Origin: Campylobacterales bacterium
GTDB lineage: Bacteria > Campylobacterota > Campylobacteria > Campylobacterales > QNZT01
NCBI GenBank assembly: GCA_027056215.1
Contig: JALULO010000112.1
Coordinates: forward strand, 1 to 35,907
Reading direction: 5' to 3'
DNA: 35,907 nt
The translations under genes and the position numbers were made by a program. Of the stretch, positions 55 to 18,429 are shown one piece after another. Under the pieces are notes generated by a model. It was not told where the DNA came from. It worked only from the letters and a program-made list of their open reading frames with translations, and made no database searches. The stretch's first letter is position 1. Each line of letters starts with the position of its first letter.

Positions 55-3000
55 TTATCGCATGATCTTGATCGCTTTTCTTTTTCTTGTGTATGTAAAG
101 TTATTATCAAAACTAGCTCCTTTAAAATTACCGCTTTTTATTCCTATCGTATTATTTGCAGCTTCGTAAATATACTCAAAACAAGGGTGTGAGGCACAAG
201 TGCTGTCTGTAGTAAAATTATAATCCTCATATCTGCTATACCAAAGCCATGGATCTATGGAAAGGTGATAAAACTTTTTGTATGATTTGTCGGTGCCTGC
301 TCCGATAGTGAAAGTTGCTTTTCCATTTGTTGCACTATTTTGATTTGTTGCTGTTGTTGTTAGCTTTCGTTTATCTTCATCGGTATAATTAATATCACTA
401 AAATCATCTTCTTTGTTAAGATACCATGAAAGGCTCTCTTGCTCAAATCCTGTTAAAGGAGTTGTCGAGTAGATCTGTACTCTCTGTGTAGCGTTGACAT
501 CTGTTTTATTTGTTTTGATGTCTTTGGTTATAACTCTACCATAATAAAAAGTAGCATTGCCAGTAAAAGTTTGATGTTTGGTGGCGTTTACTTCATGGTC
601 GATACTATCTATGGCAGTTATGTTTATATCGCTATTTGCTCCATCTAGTGAAATAGGATTTTTAGTGACATTTCTATCTCTACCAAAATTAAAGTGTCTC
701 TCTGCGTAAGAGATGGTTTTAACACCTCCGATAAAGTCTGATTGTGTGATGGTTTCAGCCGAGAGTGTTGGGGTTTGTTCTACTGTTAATTGTAGTGAAA
801 GGTCAATATTGTTCGCAAACCATTTGTCTTGTGGATCTCTATAGTTTGTCATAGTTGCACCTTTTTCTCCAAGTGCTGTTATCTTAAAGTCAAGATTTTT
901 CAAATCCGCACTCATGTGTACTAAGTCATTTGCAAAGTATGTAAAACTCCGCCCATGATTGTCCATAGTTGGAGTTTGATCAAAAGTTATCTCAAATCTA
1001 TCAGGTATAAAGGTTAGGTTTTGCTCCAGATAGATTGTTCTGTCTATCAGAGGCGTATCATCGCTATCGACCTCTGCCCATGTTGTATCATTTAAATCTA
1101 ATCCAATATCTCCGACATTGTTGAAGCTAAGTGTTGTATCTGCCGTTACGCCATTGGTAAATGCAAAGTTGGCAGTTGGTAAAAATGCACCATCCATAGC
1201 TGAGCCATCGCTACCATCTCTAAAATATTTTTTATTTGCAGGAGTGAGAGAGGTGTTGTAGTCATCTGTTGTAGTTGTTCCATCACTATTTACCGCATGT
1301 GCTTGAAAGGTATAATCATGTTCGGATATAAGTTTTTGCGTCAAAGCATCTGATGAAGTTAGTACAAACTTGTCTGGACGGATAGAGAAAGTATCAGTTG
1401 CGTTGGATTCTACACTATTTCCATCATAGATACCTGTGATTTTTATCTTTGCACATTTTACCGCTTTGTTGTGGGTAAAGGAAACAGGATTAAAACAGGC
1501 ACTACTGTTTACCTCCTCGTTTCCACTCCATAGCTCTGTGGTGTCGTAAAGTGTGCTACATGAAGCATCTGAAAAACTTAAAAGTTCTAGTTTTGTAACA
1601 TTGACATCACTTAGAGAGTTGTTGTTATCGTTCTCATCTGCTGATAGGATAGTGAGGTCGATAGGACTTCCTGCTATTTTGGTGGTGATGTTGTTATCCC
1701 AGTTGAAACAGCCTCCGTTTCGGTTTACGGCGTTGAAAATGGCTTGAGAGCAGATGATATCACGCACAAGATCTTTTTCACTGTTGTAAAGTGAATCGAC
1801 AGTTGTGGCGTTTAGCTCGCCTTTGTAGATTTTCAACTCATCGAGGTAGCCGGTGAAGCGGTTATCGGTATTTCCTGTCCATCCTCCGATTCTTGCGCTG
1901 CTGTTTGCAATGGCGAGTGTGTTGTTGGGCGTACCCTGAAGTTGGGATAAATTTTGTAATATTCCATCTATATATAGTCTGTTCGAGTACATATCCCCAT
2001 TGGTAAAAACTGCTGTAATATGATGCCATCCATTTGCCAACCCGTCACTACTGATACCATATAAATCCCCATTAGATGAATTAAAACCAAAATATGTATC
2101 AGGCGTCCATAAATCATTCCATTCCCATCCAAATGGCATTTTACCATTGGTGCCATCCCAATACATCCAAAATGTAACCGTATTTTTTTTGTATTTTTCT
2201 GTCGAGACAGCAAGGTTATCTATATCTACTGCTCCACCATCAAGTTTTAAGGCATGTCCAATTTTTTTCTCATCTTTACTGAGGTTCGCATCATCTATGA
2301 TAGTTCCGTTGTTGTCTCCTCCTGCAGTATCTATCACCTCTCCTGTTGCACCTGTATATTTACACGCATCAAAATGATACTCTGCTAAAAGAACGGGAGT
2401 GGTACAGTCTACAGCCATGCGGTGGAAGCCGTCGTAGTTTTTGTGTAGCGTTGTGTTGCCTTCATTGTCGTAGATGGTTTGTACTTGTGTAGCATTGAGT
2501 CCTGTATCAAAAATCTTTAGTTCATCAATGATACCACCAAAATAATCATCACCATCACCAGTCCAAGTTGATTTTGCAATATAATTCACTGTTCTTGTAA
2601 CATTAGAGGGCATAAAGTCAAATGTATCTGAAGCTTTTTCAACACCATCAATATAGATTTTTGCATGTTTATTATTATCAAGTGTGGCTACAATATGGTG
2701 CATATCACCATCAATAACATCATCTGATGTTTCGATACCTTCATATTTGTCATTGTCATCGTCATCGTCACCCATATTTTCAAAAATTCCGAAGTTTAAT
2801 TTTTTGGTATCTTCTTTACGTGATAATGCTATTCCATTTTCCCCTCTGCCTGTTGTCATCTCTATAATCTTTTGATAACTTCCATCTGTATCAAAACGCA
2901 CCCATGCAGATATCGTGAAACCTTGAGAAAAATCAGCATCTATATCTGGCAAGTCAATATAGTCATCTGTTCCATCAAAGCTTGCACCATGGTTGATCTT

Positions 3001-3948
3001 AGCATCTTGTACAGTTGTTCCATTGATATCTGTCGCATGAAGCGCATGTCCACTATAATCAATCACTTCATGACTTGTACCATCCCAAGCACAACTATCA
3101 AAGTGATAATCAACAATCGGAACCAATATCGTACACACTCCTGAAATCGCCAGTTTTTGTGCAGCTGCTATATCATAAGTGATTTTTGTATCATCTTTGA
3201 CTTCAATATCCTGCCCTGTTACAGCACCGGTGATTTCAACATTTTTGCCTATTTTAATGTCGTCCTTAGCGTAGAAAAAGCCTTCATAAGTACCATCATC
3301 ATCAATATCTATTTTATTTGTTTTGTCATCTGATGCACTCAAAAGAATGAAATTTTCCGGATGATTTTTTGTATCAATCTTACTGTTTTTGTCAAATGTT
3401 GTGTCATTATAGACATAGATAATCAGTGAAGCGCCCTCTTTGATATCGATGGTAACATTTTGACCCAGTTTAAATTCGTCTACATACAGTATGACATGAC
3501 CATCGATAACAAGGGAATCACAGTCATCTTCAAGTTCAAAAGTGTCGTTAGTGCGAATCGTGATATCTCCTTGAAGTGTCAAAGTAGTATTTTCTTTCAC
3601 TTTAACTTCGCTATAGTTTTCATCATTACTTATCGTTGTATCACTGTCGATGTCCAGATCGTCGTCACTATCACCCAATTCATCCTTATCGATTGTAAAA
3701 GAGAGTGACGGTACTGTCGTGTCATTTGCGACACAGGTATCTCCATCACATGTTCCATCATTGTCTTTGAGATTATCAGTATAAATAGAACCATTGTCGG
3801 TATTGTTCAGTTCAGAGTTCTCATCTAAGTTTAATTCGCCACCGTCCAATGTCGCCACAGGACCAGCAAAAGTACTTTCGCAGACTGCTGCCTCAGCAAT
3901 CAGAGGGAAAAGGATAAAAGATAAAATGATGATAATTTTATATAACAT
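55..3948 (-). CDS. Secreted MshQ-like protein with two LamG (concanavalin-like lectin) domains
   Basis: Uninterrupted 1297-aa ORF with AAGGA about 8 nt upstream of the ATG. N-terminal signal peptide (MLYKIIIILSFILFPLIAEA). Repetitive beta-helix-like N-region. Two LamG-like units at aa ~279-495 (nt 2464-3114) and aa ~521-722 (nt 1783-2388), each starting (A/D)-Y-H-F-D-x-C and ending (I/L)DELKI(F/Y)...LNAT. The C-terminal ~570 aa are colinear with the C-terminus of the 2502-aa ORF. The architecture matches what I recall for MSHA-pilus MshQ proteins (LamG plus DUF6701-type C-terminus). Confidence 0.72.
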   Translation of the reverse strand: MLYKIIIILSFILFPLIAEAAVCESTFAGPVATLDGGELNLDENSELNNTDNGSIYTDNLKDNDGTCDGDTCVANDTTVPSLSFTIDKDELGDSDDDLDIDSDTTISNDENYSEVKVKENTTLTLQGDITIRTNDTFELEDDCDSLVIDGHVILYVDEFKLGQNVTIDIKEGASLIIYVYNDTTFDKNSKIDTKNHPENFILLSASDDKTNKIDIDDDGTYEGFFYAKDDIKIGKNVEITGAVTGQDIEVKDDTKITYDIAAAQKLAISGVCTILVPIVDYHFDSCAWDGTSHEVIDYSGHALHATDINGTTVQDAKINHGASFDGTDDYIDLPDIDADFSQGFTISAWVRFDTDGSYQKIIEMTTGRGENGIALSRKEDTKKLNFGIFENMGDDDDDNDKYEGIETSDDVIDGDMHHIVATLDNNKHAKIYIDGVEKASDTFDFMPSNVTRTVNYIAKSTWTGDGDDYFGGIIDELKIFDTGLNATQVQTIYDNEGNTTLHKNYDGFHRMAVDCTTPVLLAEYHFDACKYTGATGEVIDTAGGDNNGTIIDDANLSKDEKKIGHALKLDGGAVDIDNLAVSTEKYKKNTVTFWMYWDGTNGKMPFGWEWNDLWTPDTYFGFNSSNGDLYGISSDGLANGWHHITAVFTNGDMYSNRLYIDGILQNLSQLQGTPNNTLAIANSSARIGGWTGNTDNRFTGYLDELKIYKGELNATTVDSLYNSEKDLVRDIICSQAIFNAVNRNGGCFNWDNNITTKIAGSPIDLTILSADENDNNNSLSDVNVTKLELLSFSDASCSTLYDTTELWSGNEEVNSSACFNPVSFTHNKAVKCAKIKITGIYDGNSVESNATDTFSIRPDKFVLTSSDALTQKLISEHDYTFQAHAVNSDGTTTTDDYNTSLTPANKKYFRDGSDGSAMDGAFLPTANFAFTNGVTADTTLSFNNVGDIGLDLNDTTWAEVDSDDTPLIDRTIYLEQNLTFIPDRFEITFDQTPTMDNHGRSFTYFANDLVHMSADLKNLDFKITALGEKGATMTNYRDPQDKWFANNIDLSLQLTVEQTPTLSAETITQSDFIGGVKTISYAERHFNFGRDRNVTKNPISLDGANSDINITAIDSIDHEVNATKHQTFTGNATFYYGRVITKDIKTNKTDVNATQRVQIYSTTPLTGFEQESLSWYLNKEDDFSDINYTDEDKRKLTTTATNQNSATNGKATFTIGAGTDKSYKKFYHLSIDPWLWYSRYEDYNFTTDSTCASHPCFEYIYEAANNTIGIKSGNFKGASFDNNFTYTRKRKAIKIMR

Positions 3949-3985
3949 GTGTATTTGTGTTCCTTTTCATATGTCAAAAATAAAT

Positions 3986-3994
3986 TTTATACCA
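3986..3994 (-). promoter_or_regulatory. Candidate extended -10 (TGgTATAAA on minus strand) for the MshQ-like gene
   Basis: The reverse complement of tttatacca reads TGGTATAAA, about 38 nt upstream of the ATG at 3948. The call rests on sequence only. Confidence 0.3.
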
Positions 3995-4034
3995 ATTAAT
4001 GTTATAAATATTGAATCAATAATATATTCAAATA

Positions 4035-4071
4035 TTATTTTTGTGGGATACTCCCACCCTACGGCTTTTTT
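4035..4071. repeat. Palindromic repeat, copy B (37-bp extended unit; core 4043-4064)
   Basis: ttatttttGTGGGATACTCCCACCCTACGGctttttt. It matches copy C at 34 of 37 positions, and two of the three differences fall in the hairpin loop. Confidence 0.85.
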
Positions 4072-4140
4072 ACATGTTGTTTAGCACATTCCATACCGTT
4101 TTAAAAACTTTTGCTAAAATAGCTACTATCTATATAAAAG

Positions 4141-4177
4141 TTATTTTTGTGGGATTTTCCCACCCTACGGCTGTTTT
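4141..4177. repeat. Palindromic repeat, copy C (37-bp extended unit; core 4149-4170)
   Basis: ttatttttGTGGGATTTTCCCACCCTACGGctgtttt, 106 bp downstream of copy B. It sits over the expected -35 position of the Uma2-gene promoter. Confidence 0.85.
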
Positions 4178-4187
4178 GTTAGTTTTA

Positions 4188-4196
4188 TGATATAAT
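4188..4196 (+). promoter_or_regulatory. Extended -10 promoter element TGaTATAAT
   Basis: Perfect TGnTATAAT 28 nt upstream of the ATG at 4224, followed by the AGGAG Shine-Dalgarno at 4213-4217. Confidence 0.5.
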
Positions 4197-4223
4197 TACT
4201 TTTAGAAGATAAAGGAGTCTATC

Positions 4224-4766
4224 ATGGGTGCTGTTTATGCTATAGAAACTTATACTTATGAGGATTATAAACTCTGGAAAGGCGACTGGGAGCTTATAAA
4301 TGGGATGCCTCTTGCTATGGCTCCAAGTCCGATGAGAGATCATCAAAGAATAGGTGCAGAGTTTTTAAGTTTTTTAGCTGATGAAATTCGAGATTGTGAG
4401 GATTGCGAAGTTGTCTATGAGCTTGATTATATAGTCGATAGTGAAAATGTTTTGAGACCTGATATCGCTTTGATATGTGGGGAAGAAGCGGACTATATAA
4501 CAAAGGCTCCAAAGATTGTTGTGGAGATTGTTTCGCCCTCTACAGCAAAAAGAGATGAAAAAGTAAAGTTTGAAATATATGAGAAAGAGAAAGTTTTATA
4601 CTATATTTTGGTTTACCCAAAAATACTCCATGCAAAAATTTACAAGATAGAGAACCATGTATACCAAAAACAGGGTGATTTTACAAAAGAGAAATATCTA
4701 TTTGATGGCTTAGAGTGTGCGGTAGAGTTAGATTTTAAAGAGGTTTTTAAGAAGTTTAAAAGATAA
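4224..4766 (+). CDS. Uma2-family (DUF820) PD-(D/E)xK putative endonuclease
   Basis: 180-aa ORF with a good SD. Motifs are typical of the family: N-terminal ELINGMPLAMAPSP..H, then RPDIALI and VVEIVSPSTAKRDEKVKFEIYEKEKVLYYILVYP (D...E-x-S...K core). Confidence 0.8.
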   Translation: MGAVYAIETYTYEDYKLWKGDWELINGMPLAMAPSPMRDHQRIGAEFLSFLADEIRDCEDCEVVYELDYIVDSENVLRPDIALICGEEADYITKAPKIVVEIVSPSTAKRDEKVKFEIYEKEKVLYYILVYPKILHAKIYKIENHVYQKQGDFTKEKYLFDGLECAVELDFKEVFKKFKR

Positions 4767-4771
4767 AGGAG

Positions 4772-4802
4772 ATAACACAGCTAAAAATCTAAGCTGTGTT
4801 AT
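4772..4802. terminator. Bidirectional rho-independent terminator between convergent genes
   Basis: Perfect 11-bp stem ATAACACAGCT/AGCTGTGTTAT with a 9-nt loop. It is followed by TTTG on the + strand and by CTCCTTTATCTTTT on the - strand. It lies between the Uma2 stop (4766) and the carbonic anhydrase stop (4808). Confidence 0.6.
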
Positions 4803-4807
4803 TTGTA

Positions 4808-5587
4808 CTATTGTGTGATCAATCTTGCGTTGATTGGTTGCACGGGGCGGTTGTTTGGATGTCCTATCTCTTTGGCAATAGCGTTGATTTGCTCTTTTGA
4901 CGCGGTGACTGTTTTTTTGAAAACTGCCCAGAGAACACCTTCTGAACATGGAGGTGTGGTTAGTGAACCATTAAAACGGTAATAATCTACATCTGTTGGC
5001 ATAAGGGCTGAAGCATTTGCGGCTCTTTTCATAGGTGTGTCTACGCCTATTTTAGGGGAGAGTGATTCGATCACTTTTTCTAGTTCTGGGTTGTACTTAC
5101 CCTCTTCAAACATGAGTGCGAGTACGGCAAGGTTGCCTTCTTTGTCTTTGTGTACAAAGTGTGCTTCCATCGGGAAATGTTTTCCATTTATGGTATTTTC
5201 AGATGGTGTATGGAAGTGAAACTGTTTCAGCTCAAATGTATGTCCATCGATCGTTATAAAACTGCCGCTTTTGTAGTTTACTTGTACGGCATGACCGTTG
5301 TATACGACATCATTTCCACCTATAAAGTAACGAAACTGGATATGTTTCTTTTCTATATTTCGTGTATCTTTGATATCTACAGGTGATTGGTTTTTCCCCT
5401 CTTTACACATGAAGTACTCTTTTTTCAGATTGCCCCAGTGTAATGGACCACTTTCACCTTCGTATCCCCAGTGGTGTGTTGCATGATGTGCGTGTAAATC
5501 TTTTTTAACCACACTCTCTTTGCTTGCACAGCCTGTTGTAAGTAAGAGTGCCGCTGTTATGGAAAGTGCTAATATAGACTTTTTCAT
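4808..5587 (-). CDS. Periplasmic alpha-class carbonic anhydrase (lipoprotein)
   Basis: 259-aa ORF with SD AAGGAGA. Signal peptide plus lipobox (LLTTGC). Alpha-CA hallmarks are present: HWGYEGESGPLHWG, QSPVDI, FHFHTPSE.. and GSLTTPPCSEGV. Confidence 0.9.
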   Translation of the reverse strand: MKKSILALSITAALLLTTGCASKESVVKKDLHAHHATHHWGYEGESGPLHWGNLKKEYFMCKEGKNQSPVDIKDTRNIEKKHIQFRYFIGGNDVVYNGHAVQVNYKSGSFITIDGHTFELKQFHFHTPSENTINGKHFPMEAHFVHKDKEGNLAVLALMFEEGKYNPELEKVIESLSPKIGVDTPMKRAANASALMPTDVDYYRFNGSLTTPPCSEGVLWAVFKKTVTASKEQINAIAKEIGHPNNRPVQPINARLITQ

Positions 5588-5652
5588 AGATTTCTCCTTT
5601 AATTTTTCGCATATATTGTATCCTAATATTATTTATATGTTACAATCTGTGT

Positions 5653-6957
5653 ATGCATAGTTTAGACAAAGTGATAGAACTTTTAGAGACGGATAATCTG
5701 TTCCTTACAGGTGGAGCTGGGGTTGGCAAAAGTTATCTGACCAAAGAAGTGATACGGTACTATAAAAAAGAGTATCAGGGTGTGATCGTCCTTGGAAGTA
5801 CAGGTATCTCAGCAGTCAATGTTGGTGGTCAGACGATTCATAGTTTTTTCATATTTGGGATCTCTGGAAATCTTGAAGAACTTACTGCTTCAGATCGTTA
5901 CAACAAAAACCGTATCAAAGAGCTTGTGAAATTGTTAAAAAGTACAGATCTTATTATCATCGATGAGATATCCATGGTGAGTGCGGATTTGATGGAGATG
6001 ATACTGTATCGTTTTCGTCAAACTGGGTATAGTGGAAAGTTGATGGTTGTAGGAGATTTTTTCCAATTACCACCTGTACAAAAAAAAGGTTCAAATTCTC
6101 AAAATATGTTTGATCAGGGTATCTATGCGTTTCAAAGTAGTGCTTGGGAGACGTTTGACTTTGTGACGGTTGAACTAACAAAGATCAAAAGAACATCCAA
6201 TGAAGCGTTTATGAAGATACTTGAAAAGATCAGGATGGGTGAAGCAGATCATGCGGTATTTGCCTATCTTTCCAGATTGCGTCTCAATAGTTTTGAAAGC
6301 GAATCAGAAGCTACGATGCTTTTTGGTACAAATGCACAAGCAGACAGACTCAATGCCCAAAAAGTGGCATCGGTTAATCGTCCTGAAGTAACCCTAACTG
6401 CCCAAATCAAAACCAAAGATCATACGATCGATCAGAGGCGTATCGATAATTGGAAAAAGAATTTACCGATTATCGAAGATTTAAAACTCAAAGAGGGTAT
6501 TCCTGTGATTTTTACAACCAACAAATGGGGTAGTTATCACAATGGTGAAAGAGCGGTTGTGGAACACATCGACAAAGATGCTGTTGTGGTGGAAAAGAGT
6601 GGTAGGTTGATTAAGGTTGATCGTTTTGATTTTGATTTGAGTCGTACGGTTGTGGGAGAAGATGGAATGTTAGATGATGATGTGGTTTGTACCCTCAGCC
6701 AGTTTCCACTTCGCCCCGCATTTGCGATAACGATCCATAAATCACAAGGGATGAGTATTGAAAAACTGGTATGCAACGTTGACAATATCTTTGCCGATAG
6801 TCAATTTTATGTAGCCCTCTCTCGTGCCGTAGATCCTGCATATTTGAAGATCAGTTATACACGAGAGGATTTTGAAAACTACCTTCGGCGAACACTTCGT
6901 GTTTCGGATGCGGTGAAGGCATTTTATGCACAAAATAGTGCTCTTAGGTTAGAGTGA
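5653..6957 (+). CDS. Pif1/RecD-like superfamily 1B DNA helicase
   Basis: 434 aa. Walker A GGAGVGKSYL, Walker B IIIDEISMV, Pif1-type motif GDFFQLPPV, C-terminal AITIHKSQGMS and YVALSRA. Confidence 0.85.
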   Translation: MHSLDKVIELLETDNLFLTGGAGVGKSYLTKEVIRYYKKEYQGVIVLGSTGISAVNVGGQTIHSFFIFGISGNLEELTASDRYNKNRIKELVKLLKSTDLIIIDEISMVSADLMEMILYRFRQTGYSGKLMVVGDFFQLPPVQKKGSNSQNMFDQGIYAFQSSAWETFDFVTVELTKIKRTSNEAFMKILEKIRMGEADHAVFAYLSRLRLNSFESESEATMLFGTNAQADRLNAQKVASVNRPEVTLTAQIKTKDHTIDQRRIDNWKKNLPIIEDLKLKEGIPVIFTTNKWGSYHNGERAVVEHIDKDAVVVEKSGRLIKVDRFDFDLSRTVVGEDGMLDDDVVCTLSQFPLRPAFAITIHKSQGMSIEKLVCNVDNIFADSQFYVALSRAVDPAYLKISYTREDFENYLRRTLRVSDAVKAFYAQNSALRLE

Positions 6958-7819
6958 TTTTTCGTGTCAAACACATCGCAAACCCTTTCTCATAATAAGC
7001 CGCTTCATTGATAAAAAGGGGATAAAGCGGTTCTTCTTCCTCATAGTAAATCGTCTTTTCAGCAAGGGTATAAAAGAGTGGATCACCTTTTGTAATCTTT
7101 TGATAATCTCTATCTTGTCTTTGTTCATGTACCATCGCGGTGATATCGCCATTTGCATCTCGTGGATAGTCTAGTAGCTTGACATGATCATAGATTTCGA
7201 TTGGATTTTGATTGGTTGGTATGTTTTTGTGCTTGTTGTACCTCTGTATAAAATCAAGCAGATGGTAGATGAGTTGGGCGGTTTGTGTAAAGAGATTTGC
7301 CCGTAAAACGCCTTGCGGAATGGCTCCCACTTCGATAGCAAAACCATGGGGTGCGATGGAGTCAACAAAAGCATCTTCCTCATCACCCATCCATCGATAT
7401 ACATGGAGTTTTGGCTCTTTGGCACAGAGATAACGAACAGCGTCCCAAGTCAGAGAACTTTGTGAACTAACAACGAGTGAAAGCCCCATATTTGCAGTGG
7501 TGGAGTGCAGATCAACGATAAAGTCAACTTTGGGATTTTTACTCCCTTTAGGTCCTAGCATTGTGTTGAGTTCATATGCACGTTTTGCTTCATAATGATC
7601 ATGTTCTTCGTTGAGTTGAGTGGTTTGAAAAGAACGGTTTAAATCTTTGTCAATGTAGCGCCTGCAAGCTTTGATGGCTTTTGGGTTTGTATGGATAAGG
7701 AGTGTTTCAAAGTTTTCTCTATGAACCAGATTGGGTTGTTCTTGCCATTTTTTGATCAGATAGACACCGGTTAGTTCATTGCCGTGTGTTCCTCCTGTGA
7801 TCGCTACTTTGTTGATCAT
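6944..7819 (-). CDS. Aspartoacylase / succinylglutamate desuccinylase (AstE-AspA) family zinc hydrolase
   Basis: 291 aa with SD AAGGAGAG. The N-terminus VAITGGTHGNELTG and the later DLHSTT motif are typical of the family. Its 3' end overlaps the convergent helicase gene by 14 nt. Confidence 0.85.
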   Translation of the reverse strand: MINKVAITGGTHGNELTGVYLIKKWQEQPNLVHRENFETLLIHTNPKAIKACRRYIDKDLNRSFQTTQLNEEHDHYEAKRAYELNTMLGPKGSKNPKVDFIVDLHSTTANMGLSLVVSSQSSLTWDAVRYLCAKEPKLHVYRWMGDEEDAFVDSIAPHGFAIEVGAIPQGVLRANLFTQTAQLIYHLLDFIQRYNKHKNIPTNQNPIEIYDHVKLLDYPRDANGDITAMVHEQRQDRDYQKITKGDPLFYTLAEKTIYYEEEEPLYPLFINEAAYYEKGFAMCLTRKITLT

Positions 7820-7986
7820 GTGGCTCTCCTTGACATTTTTTTGATTATAGCGTTAAGAAGTTTGCGATAACATGAACAAAATGAAGGATTAAAAATCTTT
7901 GATATCAGTGATGTAAATAATGTGCAAAGAGTGGGTGTATTGAAATTTTGATTTAAGACGATATTCCTTTTAAAAGGAGATGTCGC

Positions 7987-8475
7987 ATGAAAGTGAAACA
8001 TACCAAATGGTTTTTACAACTTAGTTTTGTACTTGTTGTTTTGACGCTTGGTGGTATCTATCTGTTGTATAGTAAAATACATAAAAATGATGTTCATACA
8101 TACCAAGCTGTATTGGCTCATAACAATACAGAAGAGTTTTCAGAGTTTTTATATGAAAACAGAGATAAATTTGTCCATCTCAGTATTGTTTTGTCTGAGT
8201 CAATGAAGCAAGATGTTATCAAAGGGATGGATCAAGATGGTCGCATCATATTTCATGCACCACGTTCAAATACCGATAAAACGCTGACAAAATACTTGAT
8301 TCGTTTACCCGATGATGGTAGGAGAGATTTTTCATTTGACCAGACAAGTGGCAAACTTGAGGGCTATTTTAAAACATACAAACGCAAAGATAGTGATGGT
8401 TGTGTCTTGATAAATCTTGTACCTATCAATCCTGCATGGCTTCCAAAAGTTGATGGTATTGTAAAACAAGGTTAA
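7987..8475 (+). CDS. Hypothetical N-terminally membrane-anchored protein
   Basis: 162-aa ORF with AAGGAGA upstream and one N-terminal TM helix (WFLQLSFVLVVLTLGGIYLLY). I recognise no family. It is co-directional with the giant gene and 62 nt upstream of it. Confidence 0.5.
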   Translation: MKVKHTKWFLQLSFVLVVLTLGGIYLLYSKIHKNDVHTYQAVLAHNNTEEFSEFLYENRDKFVHLSIVLSESMKQDVIKGMDQDGRIIFHAPRSNTDKTLTKYLIRLPDDGRRDFSFDQTSGKLEGYFKTYKRKDSDGCVLINLVPINPAWLPKVDGIVKQG

Positions 8476-8537
8476 ACTTTTTTCATTTTTGGACGATATT
8501 TCTTTCATAATATACTATATATGAAAGGTGTCGTCAT

Positions 8538-11500: not shown

Positions 11501-14500
11501 TGGTGGTTGGAATTGTCACTATAACAGTGTAACGCGTCTCTTTTCATGTGACAATAACGGTACAAAATTTCATGGTGGAGATAAAGAGATAAATCTTTAT
11601 GTGACTGCTCCATCATATGAAACAAATGTCACAAATAGTGCTTCAATCGTTTCAAACCTCTCACCTGAAGTGATTGATGGCAATGTAACAACCACAGTCA
11701 TAGGCAAAACTGCCAAACTAACGTATGCGAAATCACAAAGTGATAAAGCAGTTGTAAAGATAAATGAACCATTTACCTATTCGGTCGCTGTGTTTAATGC
11801 CGGAGATGATCCTTCCTCAGAAGTGAATGCAACAGATATCAATGTTTCTTTTGCATTAGATCAAAATATCTCAGTACTTTCCTATAGTGCACAGGATTGG
11901 AATTGTTCACAAAGTGGACAAAACTTTACCTGTATCTATACCAAAGCACTAGATGTAGGTATCACAACACCAGATGTCAATCTAACAGTCAGTGGCGCAT
12001 CCCCAGGACAGAAGATAACATATATCGCTACAAAAGCTAAAGAGATGCCAACATCTGTTACGGATTCAATCAGTGTTGATATTAAAGATGTGGTACATAC
12101 AGACCTCTCACTAAGTATAGATGATAGTTTAGATCCAGTTGATGCCAATGATGGGTATAATTATACGCTTATAGTACGTAATCCACATATTAGTAAAGCA
12201 GTTGAAGATATCGTTGTAGATATCAATACAACCAGTACACGAGATTATACCTATATAGATTATAGTGATGTTAATGTTTGGAATTGTTCTCATAGCACAA
12301 AACATGTGCGATGTTTATTGAAAAATAATTTACCAGCAGACAGCAATGTCAGCTTACAGCTCAATGTCCAAGCACCCAATCTTTCTACTATCATCGATGT
12401 TAATGCAAGTGTCTCATCACAATATGTCATCGATTTCAATAAAGTAAATAATAGTGCAACAGAATCCACAGATGTTATCGATGCAAACGTAACAGGTGAT
12501 GCGCCAAGAGTGTTTACGAAAGTACCTATTTTAGGTAATGAAGATACCAATATCTTTGGCGATATTATCACGATCGGTAACCAGTCTATTTGTGAGAAAA
12601 ATGCTTTTGGACAGTGTCGAGAACCTAGTTATATGGTCAACGATCTTATAACACAAAAATATGTTAATTTAGATACTTTTTTCGGAATGGGACATAAAAG
12701 TGCAACCAATGCAAAGTTTACTATCAGTAGTGATGATGAGGTAGTATGGGCTGGTTTATATTGGATGGGTAGGATAGATAAGACACAAGCTGGAGCCAGC
12801 ACTAAGATGAAAAATGCCAATAAAGTCTTTTTTCGTCATAACAGTGATACAACATATCATAAGCTTTATAGCGTTAGACACGCAGATGCTATAGATAACA
12901 ATGGCACACTTATTCAAGTTGATAAATTTAACTATATCAATAGCAGCGATTATTTTGATTATCAAGGGATGGCTGATGTCACGGCATATGTTAAAGCACA
13001 TCGTGGTGGTACGTATTGGGTTGCTGATGTACAGTCAAGTGAAGGTGAAAATATTACAGCTGGTTGGAATTTGGTTGTGATTGTGATGGATACAAATGCA
13101 AATCCTGCACACAGTTTGAAAAATATTACACTATTTGATGGTTTTGAAGGTGTATGGAAATCACCAGGGGATACGGGTGATGCTTATCCTGATGAAGTCA
13201 ATGCACATGTCAGTGGTTTCTTAACACCGGCTAACGGTTTGATTGATTCTTCATTATCCTTTTTTGCTTTTGAAGGAGATCGTTTACTAAAAGATAATAT
13301 TCAGATTAGTGATGATGCCTCTATCATGCACACTCTTGTCAATGCCAAAAATCCCGCTGATGATGTAGTAAATGGTACTATTTCAAAAAATGGTATTACA
13401 GTAAGTGACAGGATGCCTCATCTTGATAATACATCAGGGATTGATATAGACCAATTTTATCTTGGTGATATCAATGGTACATTGGGCAGTGGTATTATTA
13501 AAAATGGACAAACATCTACTGATATCAAAATCGCTTCTGATGGTGATAGATTTTTCTTAGGTATGTTCGCGTTTGCTACATCACTATATGATCCAGTTTG
13601 TTATAATCAAAAACTTCAAAGTGCTGATTTCTCTTCACCACTTGGCAGTGAAGTGCATTTGGGTGATGAGATAGGTATTGAAGTAGAGTTTCACAACAAA
13701 GAGGTACAAACATTAAATAATTTTAAAGCATTGACTGATATTGATACGATTCTCAAAGATGACAATACAAGTTTTGAATTGAAAAATATCAATGCTTCAG
13801 GAAATCTTGAAGCAAGTTTTACGGCACAAAATACGCTGTTTAAATTTTCAAAAATAGATACAGGAGATGCAAATCAAACCGAAGTGATCGTAAATGCGGG
13901 TAAAGGATCTAATGGTACAAATGGTGGGGATTTAAGAGCAACGGATAGTATTTTCTTCCGTTATAAAGCAGTTGTTGCTGATTTGTATGATGTCAATAAA
14001 TCCCACAATATCTATAAAGCGATTTATGCACCGGCAAATAAAAAAGTAATGGTTCCTCCATGTGGTGCACAACCGAGTTTTCCAACAGTGAAAAAAAATA
14101 ATACCAGCGGCTTTGCAATAACGCATAAAAATGGTGTTACAGATGGTATCCTTGATGGTTTTGTTGGAGGTGACATCAGTAAACCTTCTAATGAAAACCA
14201 TCTTTTTACGCAAGTTTCAGATACAAACTTTTCAGTTGACATCGTTGCATTGGATGACAATAACAATAAAATGCTTAGATCCAATAACTATAAAGGTATT
14301 TTGAAACTTGATATCGTTGATACATCAGATACAACAAAAGAGTGTAAAACCTATCCAGTGATTGATAGTGACTATGTATCTATGGATGCTATTGTATCAA
14401 CACATACGATTTCATATAGTACTGCTAAAAAATCTGTTGCTTTTAGAACGCATTATCTAGTAGACAGTTATGGTAGATATATTCAATGGGGTTCACTTTC

Positions 14501-16046
14501 TAATAGCCTTACAAATTTTCAAACTATTTTACAAAATGCATCTTTTAGTGATCATCGTTGTCAAACAGAATGTCTCACCTCCCAAAACTTAGACAATTGT
14601 CGTGATTGTGTCTATAAAAATGTTGATAATGGTGGTTTTAGTAAATATACTTGTTCTACTGATAGTTTTGCTATCAAACCAAAAAATATTTCTATCGATG
14701 TTAATAGCACTGCAACAAATTTAAAAGGCGGAAAAACATATAGTCTTGATTTTAATGCTTCATTTTCGGCTTATGATCAAACTATTGATGCTTCTACAGG
14801 AACATTAAACAGGGCATTAAATGTGCCTTCTGGTTGTACGCTCTTGGCTGCAAATACTTCCATCATACCAACAGGTGGATTGGTTTTTAACAATGGGATT
14901 GCCAGTTTGTCATCGTTTACATATCCAAATGTAGGAGATGTAAATATAACATTTGAAGATCATGCGTGGACTATATATGATCAAAATAGTACAGATGCTA
15001 ACATGAGTGATTGTATCTTAGGTAGCAATACAAATACACCTGATTCTAATGGAAAAGTTGGATGTAATATCGCTTCTAAAAAGATGTTTCATTTTGTACC
15101 AGACACTTTTTCAAATAGTATCATTTTAAAAGATTTTAATGCCAGTGGTTTTGTCTATTTATCTCCTGGTGATTCTAATATGGCAGCAACGATTGCATTT
15201 CAAACCAAAGCGGTTTTGGCAAATGGAAGTGTTGCAACAAATTATACCAATGGTTGTTTTGCACAAGATGTGAACTATCAGTTTAGTTTTACCAATCCTA
15301 CTATACCTGCAAATGCTGGTGGTATTAGCTATTTTGATGATGGAGGTGTTACCTCTACTTATCATGGTACACCACATTCAGGAGATTTTGATACCACACA
15401 GAGTCATTTTAATAGTGGTATTGCAAATATAGATATAAAATTTAATTTTAATAAAAATGCGATGGTTGCGGTAAATCCATTTGAAATCAATAAAAATGAT
15501 TTTAATATTACAGGCATTGTTGATACAAATGGTGCAAGTGGAAGTGACTTTAATCGAAGTGTCAATCAAAGTATCCCTTTTTACTATGGACGTTTACATA
15601 TACCTGATATCACAGTAGATAAACCACAATGTACAATGCCTCTGTATTATGAAATATATTGTAAAGATTGTAATAAAAGTCGATATACATTAGCAAACAA
15701 TCCTGAAAGTGTAGACAGTGTTAATTGGTATAATATCAATACAATACATACAACTGCTTTACAGGGAAGTTTCAGTGGTGAACATACGAACAATGGTGTG
15801 CATGTTGGGACAAAAACACTCAAAGGTGTCAATCTCTCTTTAAATGGGATCAAACCACCTTATAAAGATAAAGTTGTTGTGAATCCTTCAAGTTGGTTGT
15901 TGTTTAATCCTTTTGTTGCAACAACAAAAACTTGGGGTAAAGTTGATTTTACAAGTGCTGCAAAAGAGTGGGCTGGTAAAGGAAAGTTGGGTTATACCGT
16001 AGATAGTAATATATCTAAAAGAGATATTAAAAAGATGGATTGGTAA
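8538..16046 (+). CDS. Giant (2502 aa) secreted multidomain surface protein: PPC-like domain, 9 DUF11-like repeats, unassigned central domain, MshQ-like C-terminal module
   Basis: Single uninterrupted ORF. Signal peptide (FFLLIILFMLNLQA). Aa ~55-130 resemble a pre-peptidase C-terminal (PPC) domain (ALYYKITL...GTYYLKVYN). Nine ~95-aa repeats span aa 158-1280. The C-terminal ~650 aa are colinear with the 1297-aa protein: TDSFAIKPK vs TDTFSIRPD, YPNVGDVNITFED vs FNNVGDIGLDLND, FHFVPDTF vs LTFIPDRF, and FYYGR in both. Confidence 0.75.
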   Translation: MISQRFFRFFLLIILFMLNLQAADSCTSPTAVLSLNNTLTGQYIDKPFINGQSGSGEALYYKITLSQNGTLVLRTNIDATHSSDTVDTYAELLDSSCAKIEDVPMVSSNPRLIKEDKSLVSGTYYLKVYNKIDINDGSLENANGYFQIQNTLTTSLPSHDISFFRDHVNSMQSGSEIIQHFYVRNNGSVSTAAVKVTIPSHTPAGNLNFVSKVNSTQWSCSSGDPIVCTLNSGTIATNEIQELQLKYKSNYATSDRTVSNQAKADITFTDATTMQKTATRSVDIYKEIPGIHIEKSAPDSVIRNNTFDYTWTIDNNGTLPDDNVTVTDKIGTDFDIVSINYDASVWKNCGYSGKNVSCELINPLQPGYANRQSFQIQVKATGDPANPEGVTHYAIVNADTVMGHVSDDDAKNVTIIAQSFIATLTKTASVSQVMVGHDAYYNVTVANTGNSALSNVRITDNVPSELTLSSLSNTSGWDCSASNIASNSVDCTLNSDLAAGAAKSLRVNVKGKTVANSVTNTATVNTTEAPPANGSDTLDVITATPSIKIYKGGPSNIKSLHKYYYTFSVQNDGSEIDHNVTVTDTIDTQLTLPTDWDDAVDATWSCGKSGQTVTCTYANDFYPGDSTPTLYIKVQAPYVTSDTPISNTAVVNADGSGIPLTDSSTVSTTINTPTEGIKLDKTVSSPTVNSAAYFTYTLNVENNGTLDETTIKVIDDLPTQLDGNGVIDSGTDADFDCSASSGKHIECTLASLPAGVSKLIKIKVKAPIVTTNTTITNHANTSAKIVVAGFVDDTTTANGHVSVTILPPASDLIISKTAPKSVALENDLFYYTIKIRNNSIADEHNVTMTDDVPHDLQIQNIVASGWTCTTSSNLITCQMSDLLANTQAQDINISVKAPNTIATQKTITNTAKVTSVKEIGGKTAHVDITLMPANKALNMHISSHPSTVYAGNEYYYKIFMTNNSGRDIDDINITDTLPADVTYVRYDSGGWNCHYNSVTRLFSCDNNGTKFHGGDKEINLYVTAPSYETNVTNSASIVSNLSPEVIDGNVTTTVIGKTAKLTYAKSQSDKAVVKINEPFTYSVAVFNAGDDPSSEVNATDINVSFALDQNISVLSYSAQDWNCSQSGQNFTCIYTKALDVGITTPDVNLTVSGASPGQKITYIATKAKEMPTSVTDSISVDIKDVVHTDLSLSIDDSLDPVDANDGYNYTLIVRNPHISKAVEDIVVDINTTSTRDYTYIDYSDVNVWNCSHSTKHVRCLLKNNLPADSNVSLQLNVQAPNLSTIIDVNASVSSQYVIDFNKVNNSATESTDVIDANVTGDAPRVFTKVPILGNEDTNIFGDIITIGNQSICEKNAFGQCREPSYMVNDLITQKYVNLDTFFGMGHKSATNAKFTISSDDEVVWAGLYWMGRIDKTQAGASTKMKNANKVFFRHNSDTTYHKLYSVRHADAIDNNGTLIQVDKFNYINSSDYFDYQGMADVTAYVKAHRGGTYWVADVQSSEGENITAGWNLVVIVMDTNANPAHSLKNITLFDGFEGVWKSPGDTGDAYPDEVNAHVSGFLTPANGLIDSSLSFFAFEGDRLLKDNIQISDDASIMHTLVNAKNPADDVVNGTISKNGITVSDRMPHLDNTSGIDIDQFYLGDINGTLGSGIIKNGQTSTDIKIASDGDRFFLGMFAFATSLYDPVCYNQKLQSADFSSPLGSEVHLGDEIGIEVEFHNKEVQTLNNFKALTDIDTILKDDNTSFELKNINASGNLEASFTAQNTLFKFSKIDTGDANQTEVIVNAGKGSNGTNGGDLRATDSIFFRYKAVVADLYDVNKSHNIYKAIYAPANKKVMVPPCGAQPSFPTVKKNNTSGFAITHKNGVTDGILDGFVGGDISKPSNENHLFTQVSDTNFSVDIVALDDNNNKMLRSNNYKGILKLDIVDTSDTTKECKTYPVIDSDYVSMDAIVSTHTISYSTAKKSVAFRTHYLVDSYGRYIQWGSLSNSLTNFQTILQNASFSDHRCQTECLTSQNLDNCRDCVYKNVDNGGFSKYTCSTDSFAIKPKNISIDVNSTATNLKGGKTYSLDFNASFSAYDQTIDASTGTLNRALNVPSGCTLLAANTSIIPTGGLVFNNGIASLSSFTYPNVGDVNITFEDHAWTIYDQNSTDANMSDCILGSNTNTPDSNGKVGCNIASKKMFHFVPDTFSNSIILKDFNASGFVYLSPGDSNMAATIAFQTKAVLANGSVATNYTNGCFAQDVNYQFSFTNPTIPANAGGISYFDDGGVTSTYHGTPHSGDFDTTQSHFNSGIANIDIKFNFNKNAMVAVNPFEINKNDFNITGIVDTNGASGSDFNRSVNQSIPFYYGRLHIPDITVDKPQCTMPLYYEIYCKDCNKSRYTLANNPESVDSVNWYNINTIHTTALQGSFSGEHTNNGVHVGTKTLKGVNLSLNGIKPPYKDKVVVNPSSWLLFNPFVATTKTWGKVDFTSAAKEWAGKGKLGYTVDSNISKRDIKKMDW
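9009..12380 (+). repeat. Nine tandem ~95-aa Ig-like (DUF11 / conserved-repeat-domain-like) coding repeats
   Basis: Recurrent pattern: Y/F-x-Y-T-hydrophobic-x-V-x-N-x-G, then D/E-x-N-V-T-V-T-D, then W-x-C followed ~8-10 residues later by a second C, ending V-K-A-P or V-Q-A-P. The repeats are divergent at DNA level and recognisable only at protein level. Confidence 0.75.
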
Positions 16047-16049
16047 GAG

Positions 16050-16757
16050 ATGAAAAAAAGTGGATTTAGTTTGATAGAATTAGTATTTGCGATTGTTATT
16101 ATTGCTATTTCTGTCATGACAATTCCTTTGATGCTGTCACAAAGTGCTAAAAATGATAGTTTTTCTCTCATGCAGGAGTCTATCCTTGCAGCAAGAACAA
16201 AGATGGGCAATATTCTCAGTTATATGTGGGATGATAATGCCATTGAAACAAATAGCACGATGATTGTTGTTTTAGATGTAAAAAATGGTGACAGTGAACT
16301 TGATCGTAATATGAGTACACTCAATAGCAATAGAAGAATAGGGCATATTCCAAAAGATAAAAGAAGACATATGATGGAAGGGAACAGTACTGTTATGACA
16401 TTTCCCTCAACTGCTGTGGATGTCAATATAACGGACTTAAACGATTTTGATGCTAAAACTACGTCTATAGCTTTTAGTGGAACTGGAAGTGCAACTGATA
16501 ACTTTGATTATTTAGATAAAAATCTCTCACTTGCAACAAAAGTTTATTATATCGATGATAAAACAGACTATAACGCTACAAATATTACATTTGATTTTGA
16601 TGTAAGTACTAAAAAAAGTATAACAGCTGTAAATAATACGACAAATATCAAAATGATAGAGTTAAATGTAACAAGTCAAAGTTATCAGCCATTTGTATTT
16701 CGTACATTTTCATGCAATATTGGACAATCTAAATATCTCTATAGGACAGCAAACTGA
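16050..16757 (+). CDS. Prepilin-type (type IV pilin / T2SS pseudopilin-like) protein, minor-pilin candidate
   Basis: 235 aa. Class III signal peptide MKKSG|FSLIELVFAIVIIAISV (G-F-S-L-I-E with Glu5). It starts 3 nt after the giant gene stop. Confidence 0.78.
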   Translation: MKKSGFSLIELVFAIVIIAISVMTIPLMLSQSAKNDSFSLMQESILAARTKMGNILSYMWDDNAIETNSTMIVVLDVKNGDSELDRNMSTLNSNRRIGHIPKDKRRHMMEGNSTVMTFPSTAVDVNITDLNDFDAKTTSIAFSGTGSATDNFDYLDKNLSLATKVYYIDDKTDYNATNITFDFDVSTKKSITAVNNTTNIKMIELNVTSQSYQPFVFRTFSCNIGQSKYLYRTAN

Positions 16758-17695
16758 TGCAAATTATAAATGATACTAAACGTGAAGCATTTACCTTGAT
16801 AGAGATTATACTTGTTATTGTGATTTTAGGTATTGTCTCTATGATTGGTGCAGATATTATCGCACATATGTATGAAGGCTATACTCGTTCTAAAATAGTT
16901 AACGAATTGACGCAAAAAACAGAACTATCTATCGAGCAAATTGCAAAACGTTTACAATACAGAATCAAAAACACCACTTTTGCACGAGATAAAAATAATC
17001 CAAATACGATAAAACCCCTCTCTTCTGATGATTTAAATGAGACCTTCAATATGATAGAGTGGATAGGTTATGACAATGAAGGATTTTTGGGAGATTACAA
17101 CGGTTCTGTTAATGTTCCTGGATGGAGTGGTTTTGTTGATTTAAACAATGCCAACACTGATAAAACACAGATTGTGACACCAGGTTCACACCTAAGCTAT
17201 GCAAAAAGTACCATCAATGCACTCTCTTACAATGATATCGATATCTCCGCACCAACACCCGGTAAAGGTCCTGCCATAGTTTTTAAGTGTTGGAACAGCG
17301 TAGAACCAAAGATGTATGGATTTGACTATACCCATCCTAATGATCATAACAATACTTTGCGTGTTAAAAGTGTTGGTGAAGATGTCCTTCAATTTACTGA
17401 AAACCTTAATTCCAAAGAGTTATGTGAACAGTATTATCTAGCATGGTCGGCTTATGCACTTGTACCAGAGGGAAATGATGCAAATGATTTTAATCTAACG
17501 CTCTATTATAATTATCAACCATGGTATGGTGAGAAGTACAGTGATCCGGGAACGAAACATAGTGTTGTTGCTGAGCATGTCAGCACTTTTCGTTTTATCA
17601 AGGTAGGAAATACGGTTCGCATCAAACTCTGTATACAAGATGGTAATCAAACGGGTACAAGTGTTGGTATATGTAAAGAAAAGGCGGTGTTTTGA
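16757..17695 (+). CDS. Prepilin-like minor pilin (MshO/PilW-like size class)
   Basis: 312 aa. N-terminus ...KREA|FTLIEIILVIVILGIV (F-T-L-I-E with Glu5, Ala at -1). The ATG overlaps the upstream stop (TGATG). Confidence 0.7.
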   Translation: MQIINDTKREAFTLIEIILVIVILGIVSMIGADIIAHMYEGYTRSKIVNELTQKTELSIEQIAKRLQYRIKNTTFARDKNNPNTIKPLSSDDLNETFNMIEWIGYDNEGFLGDYNGSVNVPGWSGFVDLNNANTDKTQIVTPGSHLSYAKSTINALSYNDIDISAPTPGKGPAIVFKCWNSVEPKMYGFDYTHPNDHNNTLRVKSVGEDVLQFTENLNSKELCEQYYLAWSAYALVPEGNDANDFNLTLYYNYQPWYGEKYSDPGTKHSVVAEHVSTFRFIKVGNTVRIKLCIQDGNQTGTSVGICKEKAVF

Positions 17696-18138
17696 TGCGT
17701 AAAGGATTTGGACTATTGGTTGCGATTTTAATCATGATGACGGTTGCCTTGTTGATGACAATGATGATCTCTTACAGTACCAGTTCTGTAAAATCAACCA
17801 TTGACCTTTACTTAAAAGAACAAGCAGAGATCTTAACCAGAAATGCGACGGAGTATACGCTTTTAGCGATCTCGGGACACAATAACACACAAAATTGTAT
17901 TGAAGAAATCAATGCGACTTATCCTAGCGCTACAGCACCGACGCATCATATTCATGTCAATGTATGGTATATTGGAGATGGTATTCCTGTAAGTTGTTCG
18001 CATATTTTGGAAAACAATATTACAACAGCTGATTCTAATCTAACAGCTATTATTGATGTTGTTGTAAGTGTCGATCAAGCTAGAACAGGTATTACAGAGC
18101 CTATACGTTTACACAGACGGACAATTCAAAAACCTTGA
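17695..18138 (+). CDS. Small pilin-like protein lacking Glu5 (MshP/PilX/GspK-like class)
   Basis: MRKG|FGLLVAILIMMTVALL. The ATG at 17695 overlaps the upstream stop (TGATG). The ORF track starts it 3 nt earlier at a TTG (17692). 147-148 aa. Confidence 0.55.
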   Translation: MRKGFGLLVAILIMMTVALLMTMMISYSTSSVKSTIDLYLKEQAEILTRNATEYTLLAISGHNNTQNCIEEINATYPSATAPTHHIHVNVWYIGDGIPVSCSHILENNITTADSNLTAIIDVVVSVDQARTGITEPIRLHRRTIQKP

Positions 18139-18207: not shown

Positions 18208-18429
18208 ATGCGTACAACAAAATTGATTATTGCATTATTGGCTGCGTCATTTATATCTACAGCAGTTTATGCAAAATGCGGCGGTGGTATGATGGATCAT
18301 GCGACAGCAAAAGCTAAAGAGGTTGTTTCGCAAGAAACAAATGCAACAGTACAAAAAGCCAAAACGACAGTTAAAACCAAAGCCAAAGAGATGGTAAAAG
18401 GTAAATGTGGCGTAGGAAAATGCGGTTGA
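18208..18429 (+). CDS. Small secreted Cys-Gly-motif peptide (73 aa; three KCG motifs)
   Basis: Strong SD. Sec signal peptide ending VYA. The mature ~51-aa Lys/Ala/Thr-rich peptide begins KCGGG and ends KGKCGVGKCG-stop. Confidence 0.6.
   Translation: MRTTKLIIALLAASFISTAVYAKCGGGMMDHATAKAKEVVSQETNATVQKAKTTVKTKAKEMVKGKCGVGKCG

Follow-up and report, generated by a model that had tools for sequence, protein, structure and literature searches.

The purpose of general N-glycosylation in the Campylobacterota is still debated, and, to our knowledge, the process has been studied there almost only in host-associated Campylobacter and Helicobacter, on substrates with one or few glycans. The known glycoproteins of Campylobacter jejuni are mainly periplasmic or membrane proteins with one to few sites. 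An acidic residue at position −2 of the acceptor Asn, as in the extended sequon D/E-x-N-x-S/T, is the acceptor rule of the C. jejuni oligosaccharyltransferase PglB and of most active PglB homologues tested (PMC4894442), and PglB is common in the Campylobacterota (PMC4894442, PMC2952790). Here, we analyze a stretch of 35,907 nucleotides from a Campylobacterales bacterium (the window; GenBank assembly GCA_027056215.1, contig JALULO010000112.1, positions 1 to 35,907, forward strand), which is part of a 96-kb hydrothermal-vent metagenome scaffold (ENA ERZ23495730 scaffold_40; also in Logan SRR10312499) and encodes five pilus-associated proteins that are extremely rich in this sequon. These proteins share with the Pgl system of C. 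jejuni and Campylobacter lari the acceptor motif (acid at −2, no Pro, Thr preferred over Ser at +2), the export of the substrates, and the phylum. Unlike C. jejuni, which has no such pilus and whose glycoproteins are modified sparsely, the organism has 3 to 35 predicted sites in each of the five proteins, and its relatives have up to 60. We consider it likely that the motifs are selected acceptor sites for a Campylobacter-type (PglB) N-oligosaccharyltransferase and that they predict a heavily N-glycosylated pilus tip.

Sequon counts and register

Sequons were counted with the regular expression [DE][^P]N[^P][ST], and the count expected for each protein was derived from 2000 composition-preserving shuffles. 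An MshQ-like adhesin of 1297 aa has 22 sequons where 2.9 are expected (z 11.6), and a giant adhesin of 2502 aa has 35 where 4.5 are expected (z 15.1). Three pilin-like proteins of 235, 312, and 148 aa carry 7, 5, and 3 sequons (0.4, 0.4, and 0.1 expected, respectively). Summed over the five proteins, there are 72 sequons versus 8.3 expected, with a per-protein enrichment of 7- to 25-fold, and in each protein the observed count was reached by 0 of the 2000 shuffles. The extreme enrichment had been claimed in an earlier, sequence-only reading of this DNA and is borne out by these numbers. Its counts, made by eye, were exact for the three pilin-like proteins and slightly low for the two large ones (20 and at least 33 instead of 22 and 35). 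The remaining 26 open reading frames (ORFs) of the window have 0 to 1 sequons apiece. They include the carbonic anhydrase, TolB, Pal, the YbgF-like protein, and a 162-aa protein, in which the same reading had found no sequon and in which our recount also gives 0 each; plain N-x-S/T occurs 7 times in TolB and 4 times in Pal.

The counts could in principle be a by-product of N/D/T-rich composition, of AT-rich codon usage (the GC content of the window is ~0.35), or of internal repeats. The five proteins are indeed rich in D, N, S, and T, and the 2502-aa protein contains six DUF11 repeats with a D-x-N-V-T-V-T-D motif. Against this explanation, shuffles of the same composition yield about a tenth of the observed counts, reversed and register-shifted motifs occur at about their expectation, and equally N/D/T-rich LamG proteins of other phyla are also at expectation. 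Repeats contribute little: 87 sequon contexts fall into 85 clusters, the DUF11 repeat relates only 2 pairs, and at most ~5 sites are attributable to repeats. The warning in the sequence-only reading that part of the enrichment is inherited from the Ig-like repeats was therefore correct in kind but is negligible overall, given that 85 of the 87 contexts are unrelated, while its claim that the enrichment exceeds what N/D/T-rich composition would give agrees with the shuffles and with the control motifs. An artefact of composition or repeats is excluded by the shuffles, the control motifs, the context clustering, and the LamG proteins of other phyla, and we assign it a negligible probability.

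The enrichment is specific to one register of the motif. In a pooled set of the five window proteins and four prepilins encoded just left of the window, the exact sequon occurs 88 times versus 9.4 expected (9.3-fold, z 27). Thirteen control motifs, the Pro-containing form among them, range from 0- to 2.3-fold. Moving the acid to −1 or −3 gives 0.9- and 1.5-fold, and moving S/T to +1 or +3 gives 1.8-fold and 2.3-fold, the latter being the highest control value. The reversed motif is at 0.95-fold, and motifs with Q, D, or S replacing N are at 0.7- to 1.2-fold. With K/R or N/Q at −2 the ratios are 1.3- and 0.1-fold, and the two half-motifs, D/E-x-N-x-(not S/T) and (not D/E)-x-N-x-S/T, are at 0.9- and 0.8-fold. 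It is thus the PglB-type extended sequon specifically that is enriched, in support of the interpretation in the sequence-only reading.

The same specificity is seen when all plain N-x-S/T sites are considered. In the pooled set, 59% of them have D/E at −2, compared with 6 to 9% at −1, −3, and −4, a background of 12%, and 11% at −2 in 37 other proteins of the scaffold. N-x-S/T without an acid at −2 occurs 59 times (70.7 expected), and the excess of plain N-x-S/T lies wholly in the D/E(−2) class. Position +2 is occupied by Thr in 59 sites and by Ser in 29, and none of the 88 pooled sites has Pro at −1 or +1 of the sequon Asn.

Two adhesin and minor-pilin sets

The 1297-aa gene heads a type IV pilus operon that runs left beyond the window (Table 1). 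We call its product MshQ-like because it combines DUF7305, two LamG_3 domains, and a DUF6701-type C-terminal region. The gene is followed by genes for four prepilins (218, 292, 125, and 167 aa), three PilMNOP-like genes, and a secretin gene. Syntenic operons of relatives extend further, to genes for an MshEN-domain ATPase and a T2SSF platform protein. All 16 N-x-S/T sites of the four prepilins are full sequons (4/4, 8/8, 2/2, and 2/2, in gene order), versus 0 sequons in the PilMN-like protein (496 aa), 1 in the PilO-like protein (223 aa), 0 in the PilP-like protein (138 aa), and 0 in the secretin fragment. Therefore, sequon enrichment is a property of the subunits exported in the fibre and not of all pilus machinery exposed to the periplasm.

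Within the fibre proteins, the sites lie in parts that would reach the periplasm. Signal-peptide-like N termini can be read directly from the sequence of both large proteins, and a class III prepilin leader (G/A at −1, F at +1, E at +5) is present in the 235-aa and 312-aa proteins and in 3 of the 4 operon prepilins. All pilin sequons are downstream of the N-terminal hydrophobic helix; in the 235-aa pilin, all 7 are in the globular part (Asn 68 to 206). The 35 sequons of the 2502-aa protein are distributed over its entire length. No further small prepilin that could be an MshA-like major pilin was found beyond the four minor-pilin families in the window, the adjoining operon DNA, and the 51 related loci described below.

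The sequence-only reading had treated positions 55 to 18138 as one module. Instead, homology indicates that the five proteins belong to two paralogous sets of an adhesin and minor pilins, one of them inside the operon that extends off the window, with unrelated genes in between. This assignment is made because the 2502-aa protein has a region (aa 2040 to 2374) homologous to the C-terminal domain of the MshQ-like protein (22% identity to residues 850 to 1160 of the 1297-aa protein, E 5e-12) and because the 235-, 312-, and 148-aa proteins are paralogous to the 218-, 292-, and 125-aa prepilins of the operon (E 3e-10, 1e-23, and 3e-18, respectively). Both the 148-aa protein and its 125-aa paralogue are without Glu5, as are GspK-type tip (pseudo)pilins. 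The ORF of the 148-aa protein starts with TTG at 17692, and the public gene call starts with ATG at 17695 (147 aa).

TABLE 1 Features of the window and of the adjoining scaffold DNA
Feature	Position	Strand	Description
MshQ-like pilus adhesin, 1297 aa	55..3948	-	N-terminal signal peptide; DUF7305 (PF23981); two LamG_3 (PF13385); C-terminal DUF6701-type beta-sandwich array (PF28247, DUF6701_3rd); sequon Asn 48, 111, 309, 498, 547, 555, 713, 753, 776, 783, 814, 849, 898, 953, 977, 1093, 1109, 1121, 1152, 1187, 1244, 1283
Conserved C-terminal family domain of the MshQ-like protein, 560 residues (aa 738-1297)	55..1737	-	15 sequons
Rest of the pilus operon	L006:1-5739 (scaffold DNA adjoining window position 1)	-	Prepilins, PilMN-like, PilO-like, PilP-like, secretin
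Unrelated genes between the two pilus sets	4224-7819		Uma2-family nuclease, secreted alpha-carbonic anhydrase, PIF1/AAA_30-type helicase, AstE/AspA-family enzyme
162-aa protein	7987..8475	+	Single N-terminal hydrophobic segment; directly upstream of the giant adhesin; 0 sequons; no significant family
Giant adhesin, 2502 aa	8538..16046	+	Signal peptide; six DUF11/CLIPPER Ig-like repeats (PF01345 x6, E 2e-58; TIGR01451, E 1e-28)
Minor pilin, 235 aa	16050..16757	+	Prepilin leader ...G|FSLIE, Glu5; PF07963, TIGR02532
Minor pilin, 312 aa	16757..17695	+	Prepilin leader ...A|FTLIE; sequon Asn 94, 115, 198, 246, 297
Pilin-like protein, 148 aa	17692..18138	+	Without Glu5; weak GspK-type match (NF037980); sequon Asn 74, 109, 116
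73-aa ORF	18208-18429		Public assembly gene call; between the last pilin gene and obg

The window is otherwise mostly housekeeping (Obg, ProB, Fmt, ParAB, the ATP synthase operon, and Tol-Pal), and tRNA and Rfam scans of it gave no matches. Because the MshQ-like gene sits in other contexts in relatives, the junction between the two pilus sets may be a point of rearrangement or insertion.

Lineage restriction and site turnover

A search of a species-representative genome collection with an MshQ-like profile returned 49 loci, to which two earlier ones were added to give 51 related loci. All 49 are in Campylobacterota metagenome-assembled genomes (MAGs) from Campylobacterales, Sulfurimonadaceae, Sulfuricurvum, Hydrogenimonas, Nitratiruptor, Sulfurospirillum, and Nautiliaceae, many of them from vent deposits. 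A profile of 31 sequences of the C-terminal domain added 22 proteins, all from Campylobacterota and each ~10-fold enriched. All 71 homologues (49 loci and 22 proteins), among which Sulfurimonas is also represented, belong to a single phylum and are sequon-enriched to a similar degree, ~10-fold. The homologue in Lebetimonas sp. JH369 has 28 sites versus 2.5 expected, and the full operon is present on a 1.55-Mb contig of this strain, in which the module maps to ~998 to 1011 kb of ATHP01000001.1; further enriched homologues occur in Lebetimonas sp. JH292, Hydrogenimonas, and Sulfuricurvum.

Across the 51 loci, the fibre proteins have 1474 sequons versus ~137 expected, and the contrast with other proteins is present at every locus. 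MshQ-like proteins account for 928 (82 expected), the four minor-pilin families for 374 (28.5 expected), and DUF11-type giant homologues for 170 (27 expected). The densest case, with 60 sequons over 1213 residues (5 per 100 aa) and all contexts different, is an MshQ-like protein of a Sulfurimonas sp. MAG (L031:27-3668(+)). At the same loci, PilP-like proteins have 0 sequons (1 expected), PilO-like proteins, the homologues of the 223-aa protein, have 13 (3.2 expected), PilMN-like proteins, the homologues of the 496-aa protein, have 35 (10.9 expected), and 437 other ORFs have 108 (78 expected). The mild excess in PilMN-like and PilO-like proteins (L019, L026, L037, L041, and others) is far below that of the fibre proteins and may reflect one or two periplasmic sites.

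The sequence-only reading had suggested that the pilus proteins are a dominant substrate of the transferase. This description is supported for the sampled genes only. Among these, the median sequon density is 1.35 per 100 aa in 192 fibre ORFs and 0 in 1170 other ORFs, which were taken from the same genomes and from the surroundings of pglB genes and in which the 99th percentile is 1.06 and no ORF exceeds 7 sites (Mann-Whitney P 4e-122).

Homologues in other phyla do not share the enrichment. The LamG/MshQ homologues that the first search returned from Patescibacteria, Planctomycetota, Bacteroidota, and Pseudoalteromonas, including proteins of Adhaeretor and Xanthovirga and four other proteins of DUF6701 architecture, are all at expectation. 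When five of these non-Campylobacterota MshQ proteins were aligned to the family, none had a sequon at the 12 most conserved sequon columns.

Two other kinds of sequon-rich protein were seen. In three close relatives, the DNA upstream of the pilus operon encodes, at a distance of a few kb, a conserved protein of 350 to 361 aa without a Pfam family (L002:4948-6033(-), L010:5700-6749(-), and L012:5784-6866(-)). It carries 5 to 7 sequons versus ~0.6 expected and may be a further glycoprotein linked to the system; a counterpart was not seen in the window. In addition, a LamG/Calx-beta/cadherin-type protein of 1014 aa that is not MshQ-like (L003:812-3856, GCA_054029195.1) has 10 sequons versus 2.3 expected, and therefore other large surface adhesins in such genomes may be sequon-rich.

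Within the family, the number of sites is maintained and their positions are not. Orthologues at 44 to 60% identity have about half of their sequon columns in common. In 31 orthologous C-terminal domains, a mean of 20 sites per domain (range, 7 to 34) is spread over 142 alignment columns, of which 5 are filled in more than 15 of the 31 sequences and 48 are private to one sequence. The sharing of sequon columns drops from 0.60 to 0.22 with falling identity. Conserved sites keep their position classes while the residues vary (DYNES, DYNET, DYNTS, DFNQS, and EYNET; ETNST, ESNSS, and ESNAT). Because the classes are kept while residues vary, and density is held while positions turn over, the alignment shows the pattern expected if selection acts on the motif and its number per protein, not on particular residues.

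These data also bear on a structural explanation, in which the motif would be a structural or metal-binding element of beta-sandwich, LamG, or pilin folds (a polar D/N/T ladder or a Ca2+ site) and would involve no glycosylation. We modeled aa 738 to 1297 of the MshQ-like protein with AlphaFold (AF2) from a 27-sequence alignment (pLDDT 85.8; a 6-sequence alignment gave a pLDDT of 35). The modeled domain is an all-beta chain of beta-sandwich domains, which Foldseek matches best to the macroglobulin-domain arrays found in alpha-2-macroglobulin and in complement proteins (E 7e-9; with a TM of ~0.2, a domain-level resemblance only). About half of the modeled sites are in beta-strands, with D(−2), N(0), and T(+2) on one face, as a structural element would be, and LamG and Ig-like adhesins frequently bind Ca2+. 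However, enrichment of the motif extends over four or more folds that are unrelated to one another (globular pilin domains, LamG, DUF11, and DUF6701 beta-sandwiches), homologues of the same fold outside the Campylobacterota are without it both overall and at the conserved columns, and the sites shift among the 142 columns. Moreover, the triads D-x-D-x-S/T, D-x-S-x-S/T, and D-x-N-x-(not S/T), which are of similar chemistry, show no enrichment. We regard a purely structural role as very unlikely.

The enzyme question and comparison with known systems

PglB is on record for the genera that carry the pilus module. Matches to PglB with a WWDXG motif have been reported for Sulfurovum, Nautilia, Sulfurospirillum, Sulfurimonas, Caminibacter, and Nitratiruptor (PMC2952790; also PMC4894442, PMC6025236), and a passage of PMC6025236, citing Mills et al. 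2016, describes vent PglBs as active. Our search for PglB representatives gave 311 clusters at E<=1e-30, a very diverse family; among 20 representatives whose names were looked up, the only name obtained was that of Sulfurimonas sp. MAG313. With C. lari PglB as the query (3RCE_A, 1548 bits) against the protein collection, the 120 matches listed were all from Campylobacter, with no vent taxa among them. In the source metagenome (SRR10312499), at least 149 contig pieces are at least 80% like one vent pglB. Because the summed k-mer depth over the WWDYG region is 1500 to 6900 (L062:5000-5320, L084:2459-4579), versus 43.6 for the window's organism, PglB-encoding populations appear to dominate this vent community, and by these sequence matches PglB is pervasive in this community and also among the module-bearing genera.

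Several observations weigh against assigning the sites to PglB. Neither pglB nor other pgl genes are present in the window or in ~52 kb of the 96-kb scaffold. A tblastn search with C. lari PglB and 150 PglB representatives found no pglB within 10 kb of the pilus module at the 51 loci, and, conversely, no pilus-module genes lie within 10 kb of 80 metagenomic pglB genes. When these 80 pglB loci were ranked by tetranucleotide similarity to the scaffold and compared with contigs of the source run, many pglB fragments were recovered, none of which could be tied to this organism, whose depth is 43.6. Arg331 of PglB, which contacts the −2 acid, is widely conserved (100 of 123); it was dropped as a predictor of the −2 rule because GC-rich Desulfovibrio-like PglB representatives, which reportedly have a relaxed requirement at −2, retain it too, and its conservation thus predicts little. 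The modeled sites also show no preference for loops, with 8 of the 15 Asn in predicted beta-strands and 7 in loops. In C. jejuni, some sequons stay unused, and folded substrates are poor acceptors. With many sites in predicted strands, therefore, either modification would precede folding or only part of the sites would be used.

The sites could, alternatively, be genuine selected acceptors for a dedicated enzyme, either a second PglB paralogue or a different periplasmic enzyme that modifies Asn and follows the same rule. Some epsilonproteobacteria do encode two PglB homologues, 25 to 38% identical and located in different genome regions (PMC4894442), and the diversity of the PglB family noted above would leave room for such a paralogue. 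However, no such gene is linked to the pilus operon at any of the 51 loci, and a modest sequon excess in other periplasmic proteins (108 versus 78; 177 versus 132) fits a general system. We therefore consider a dedicated enzyme improbable, although less so than a structural role, and continue to favor general N-glycosylation by a Campylobacter-type PglB.

From the motif statistics, their specificity, the restriction of the motif to fibre proteins and to the Campylobacterota, and the turnover of sites, we infer the enzyme, occupancy, timing, and purpose of the modification as follows. Both large adhesins would cross into the periplasm via Sec, and the prepilins would reside in the inner membrane with their globular domains facing the periplasm. 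There, inner-membrane PglB would move a preassembled oligosaccharide from undecaprenyl-pyrophosphate onto the sequon Asn. This transfer would probably take place in the course of translocation or shortly afterward, ahead of beta-sandwich folding. The glycosylated minor pilins and adhesin would then build the tip complex of a pilus like the mannose-sensitive hemagglutinin (MSHA) type IV pilus, to be extruded via the secretin. The outward-facing part of the pilus would thereby carry a dense N-glycan coat, whose density would be 1.4 to 3 sites per 100 residues in this organism and as high as 5 per 100 among relatives. Because density is kept while positions shift, and because the sites are confined to extracellular parts, we propose that the selected trait would be the coat itself and not a site-specific function. 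Such a coat may shield the fibre from proteases or pilus-specific phages, or may provide solubility or stability in vent fluid.

In the literature searched, we found nothing on N-linked bacterial type IV pili or on sequon-rich Campylobacterota pilus proteins; Mills et al. 2016 (PMC4767053) and Nakagawa et al. 2007 (PMC1907315) may mention sequon-rich pilins. The sequence statistics point to a densely sugar-coated pilus tip of a kind not previously described in bacteria. In that literature we can trace no earlier prediction that a bacterial type IV pilus is N-glycosylated, and if the prediction holds, the question of the purpose of N-glycosylation would gain a concrete, testable class of substrates that is present in cultured strains, such as Lebetimonas sp. 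JH369. The proteins would also offer natural multi-sequon acceptors for studying vent PglB enzymes, for example, the 235-aa pilin with its 7 sites. Should the sites prove unoccupied, their strict, register-specific conservation would itself need a new explanation.

We also put forward, as a speculation that we think has a smaller chance of being right than of being wrong, that general N-glycosylation in free-living and vent Campylobacterota chiefly serves the pilus tip complex, which would be the densest natural bacterial N-glycan array (up to 60 sites per protein), with positions reshuffled under phage or protease pressure. The complex could then be the ancestral reason why Pgl was kept before pathogens such as Campylobacter inherited it, and its coat a bacterial counterpart of the viral glycan shield. 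Viral glycan shields likewise combine a high sequon density with gain and loss of sites while the total number is kept. The likeness is an analogy only: the organism, the enzyme, and the selective agent differ, and here the pattern is known from sequences.

The pilus itself is closest to the MSHA type IVa pilus of Vibrio cholerae and other Gammaproteobacteria, which has MshQ, minor pilins, the MshE ATPase, and the secretin MshL. The two have in common a large MshQ-like protein of the DUF6701/LamG type, after which prepilin-type minor pilins, PilMNOP-like proteins, and a secretin are encoded, and the MshEN-domain ATPase and T2SSF platform protein are seen here in the operons of relatives. In contrast to the MSHA pilus, the gene order differs, no MshA-type major pilin is found among the regions examined here, and an additional set of adhesin and minor pilins is present, whose adhesin is the giant protein with DUF11 repeats. 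The sequons set the two systems apart as well, with 1 to 4 sites versus ~2 to 3 expected in DUF6701/MshQ-type proteins from outside the Campylobacterota, including that of Pseudoalteromonas.

Glycosylated type IV filaments are known from the O-linked pilins of Neisseria and Pseudomonas, modified via PglL/TfpO, and from the N-linked pilins and archaellins of archaea, modified via AglB. In all of them, glycans built on lipid carriers are transferred onto the subunits outside the cytoplasm, as is predicted here, and in Neisseria multisite glycosylation of the pilin masks the fibre (PMC4569582). The bacterial cases, however, are O-linked on the major pilin, and the N-linked cases are archaeal and use plain N-x-S/T. 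The pilus described here would differ from both, with a predicted bacterial N-linkage that follows the −2 acid rule and with tip adhesins and minor pilins as the targets seen.

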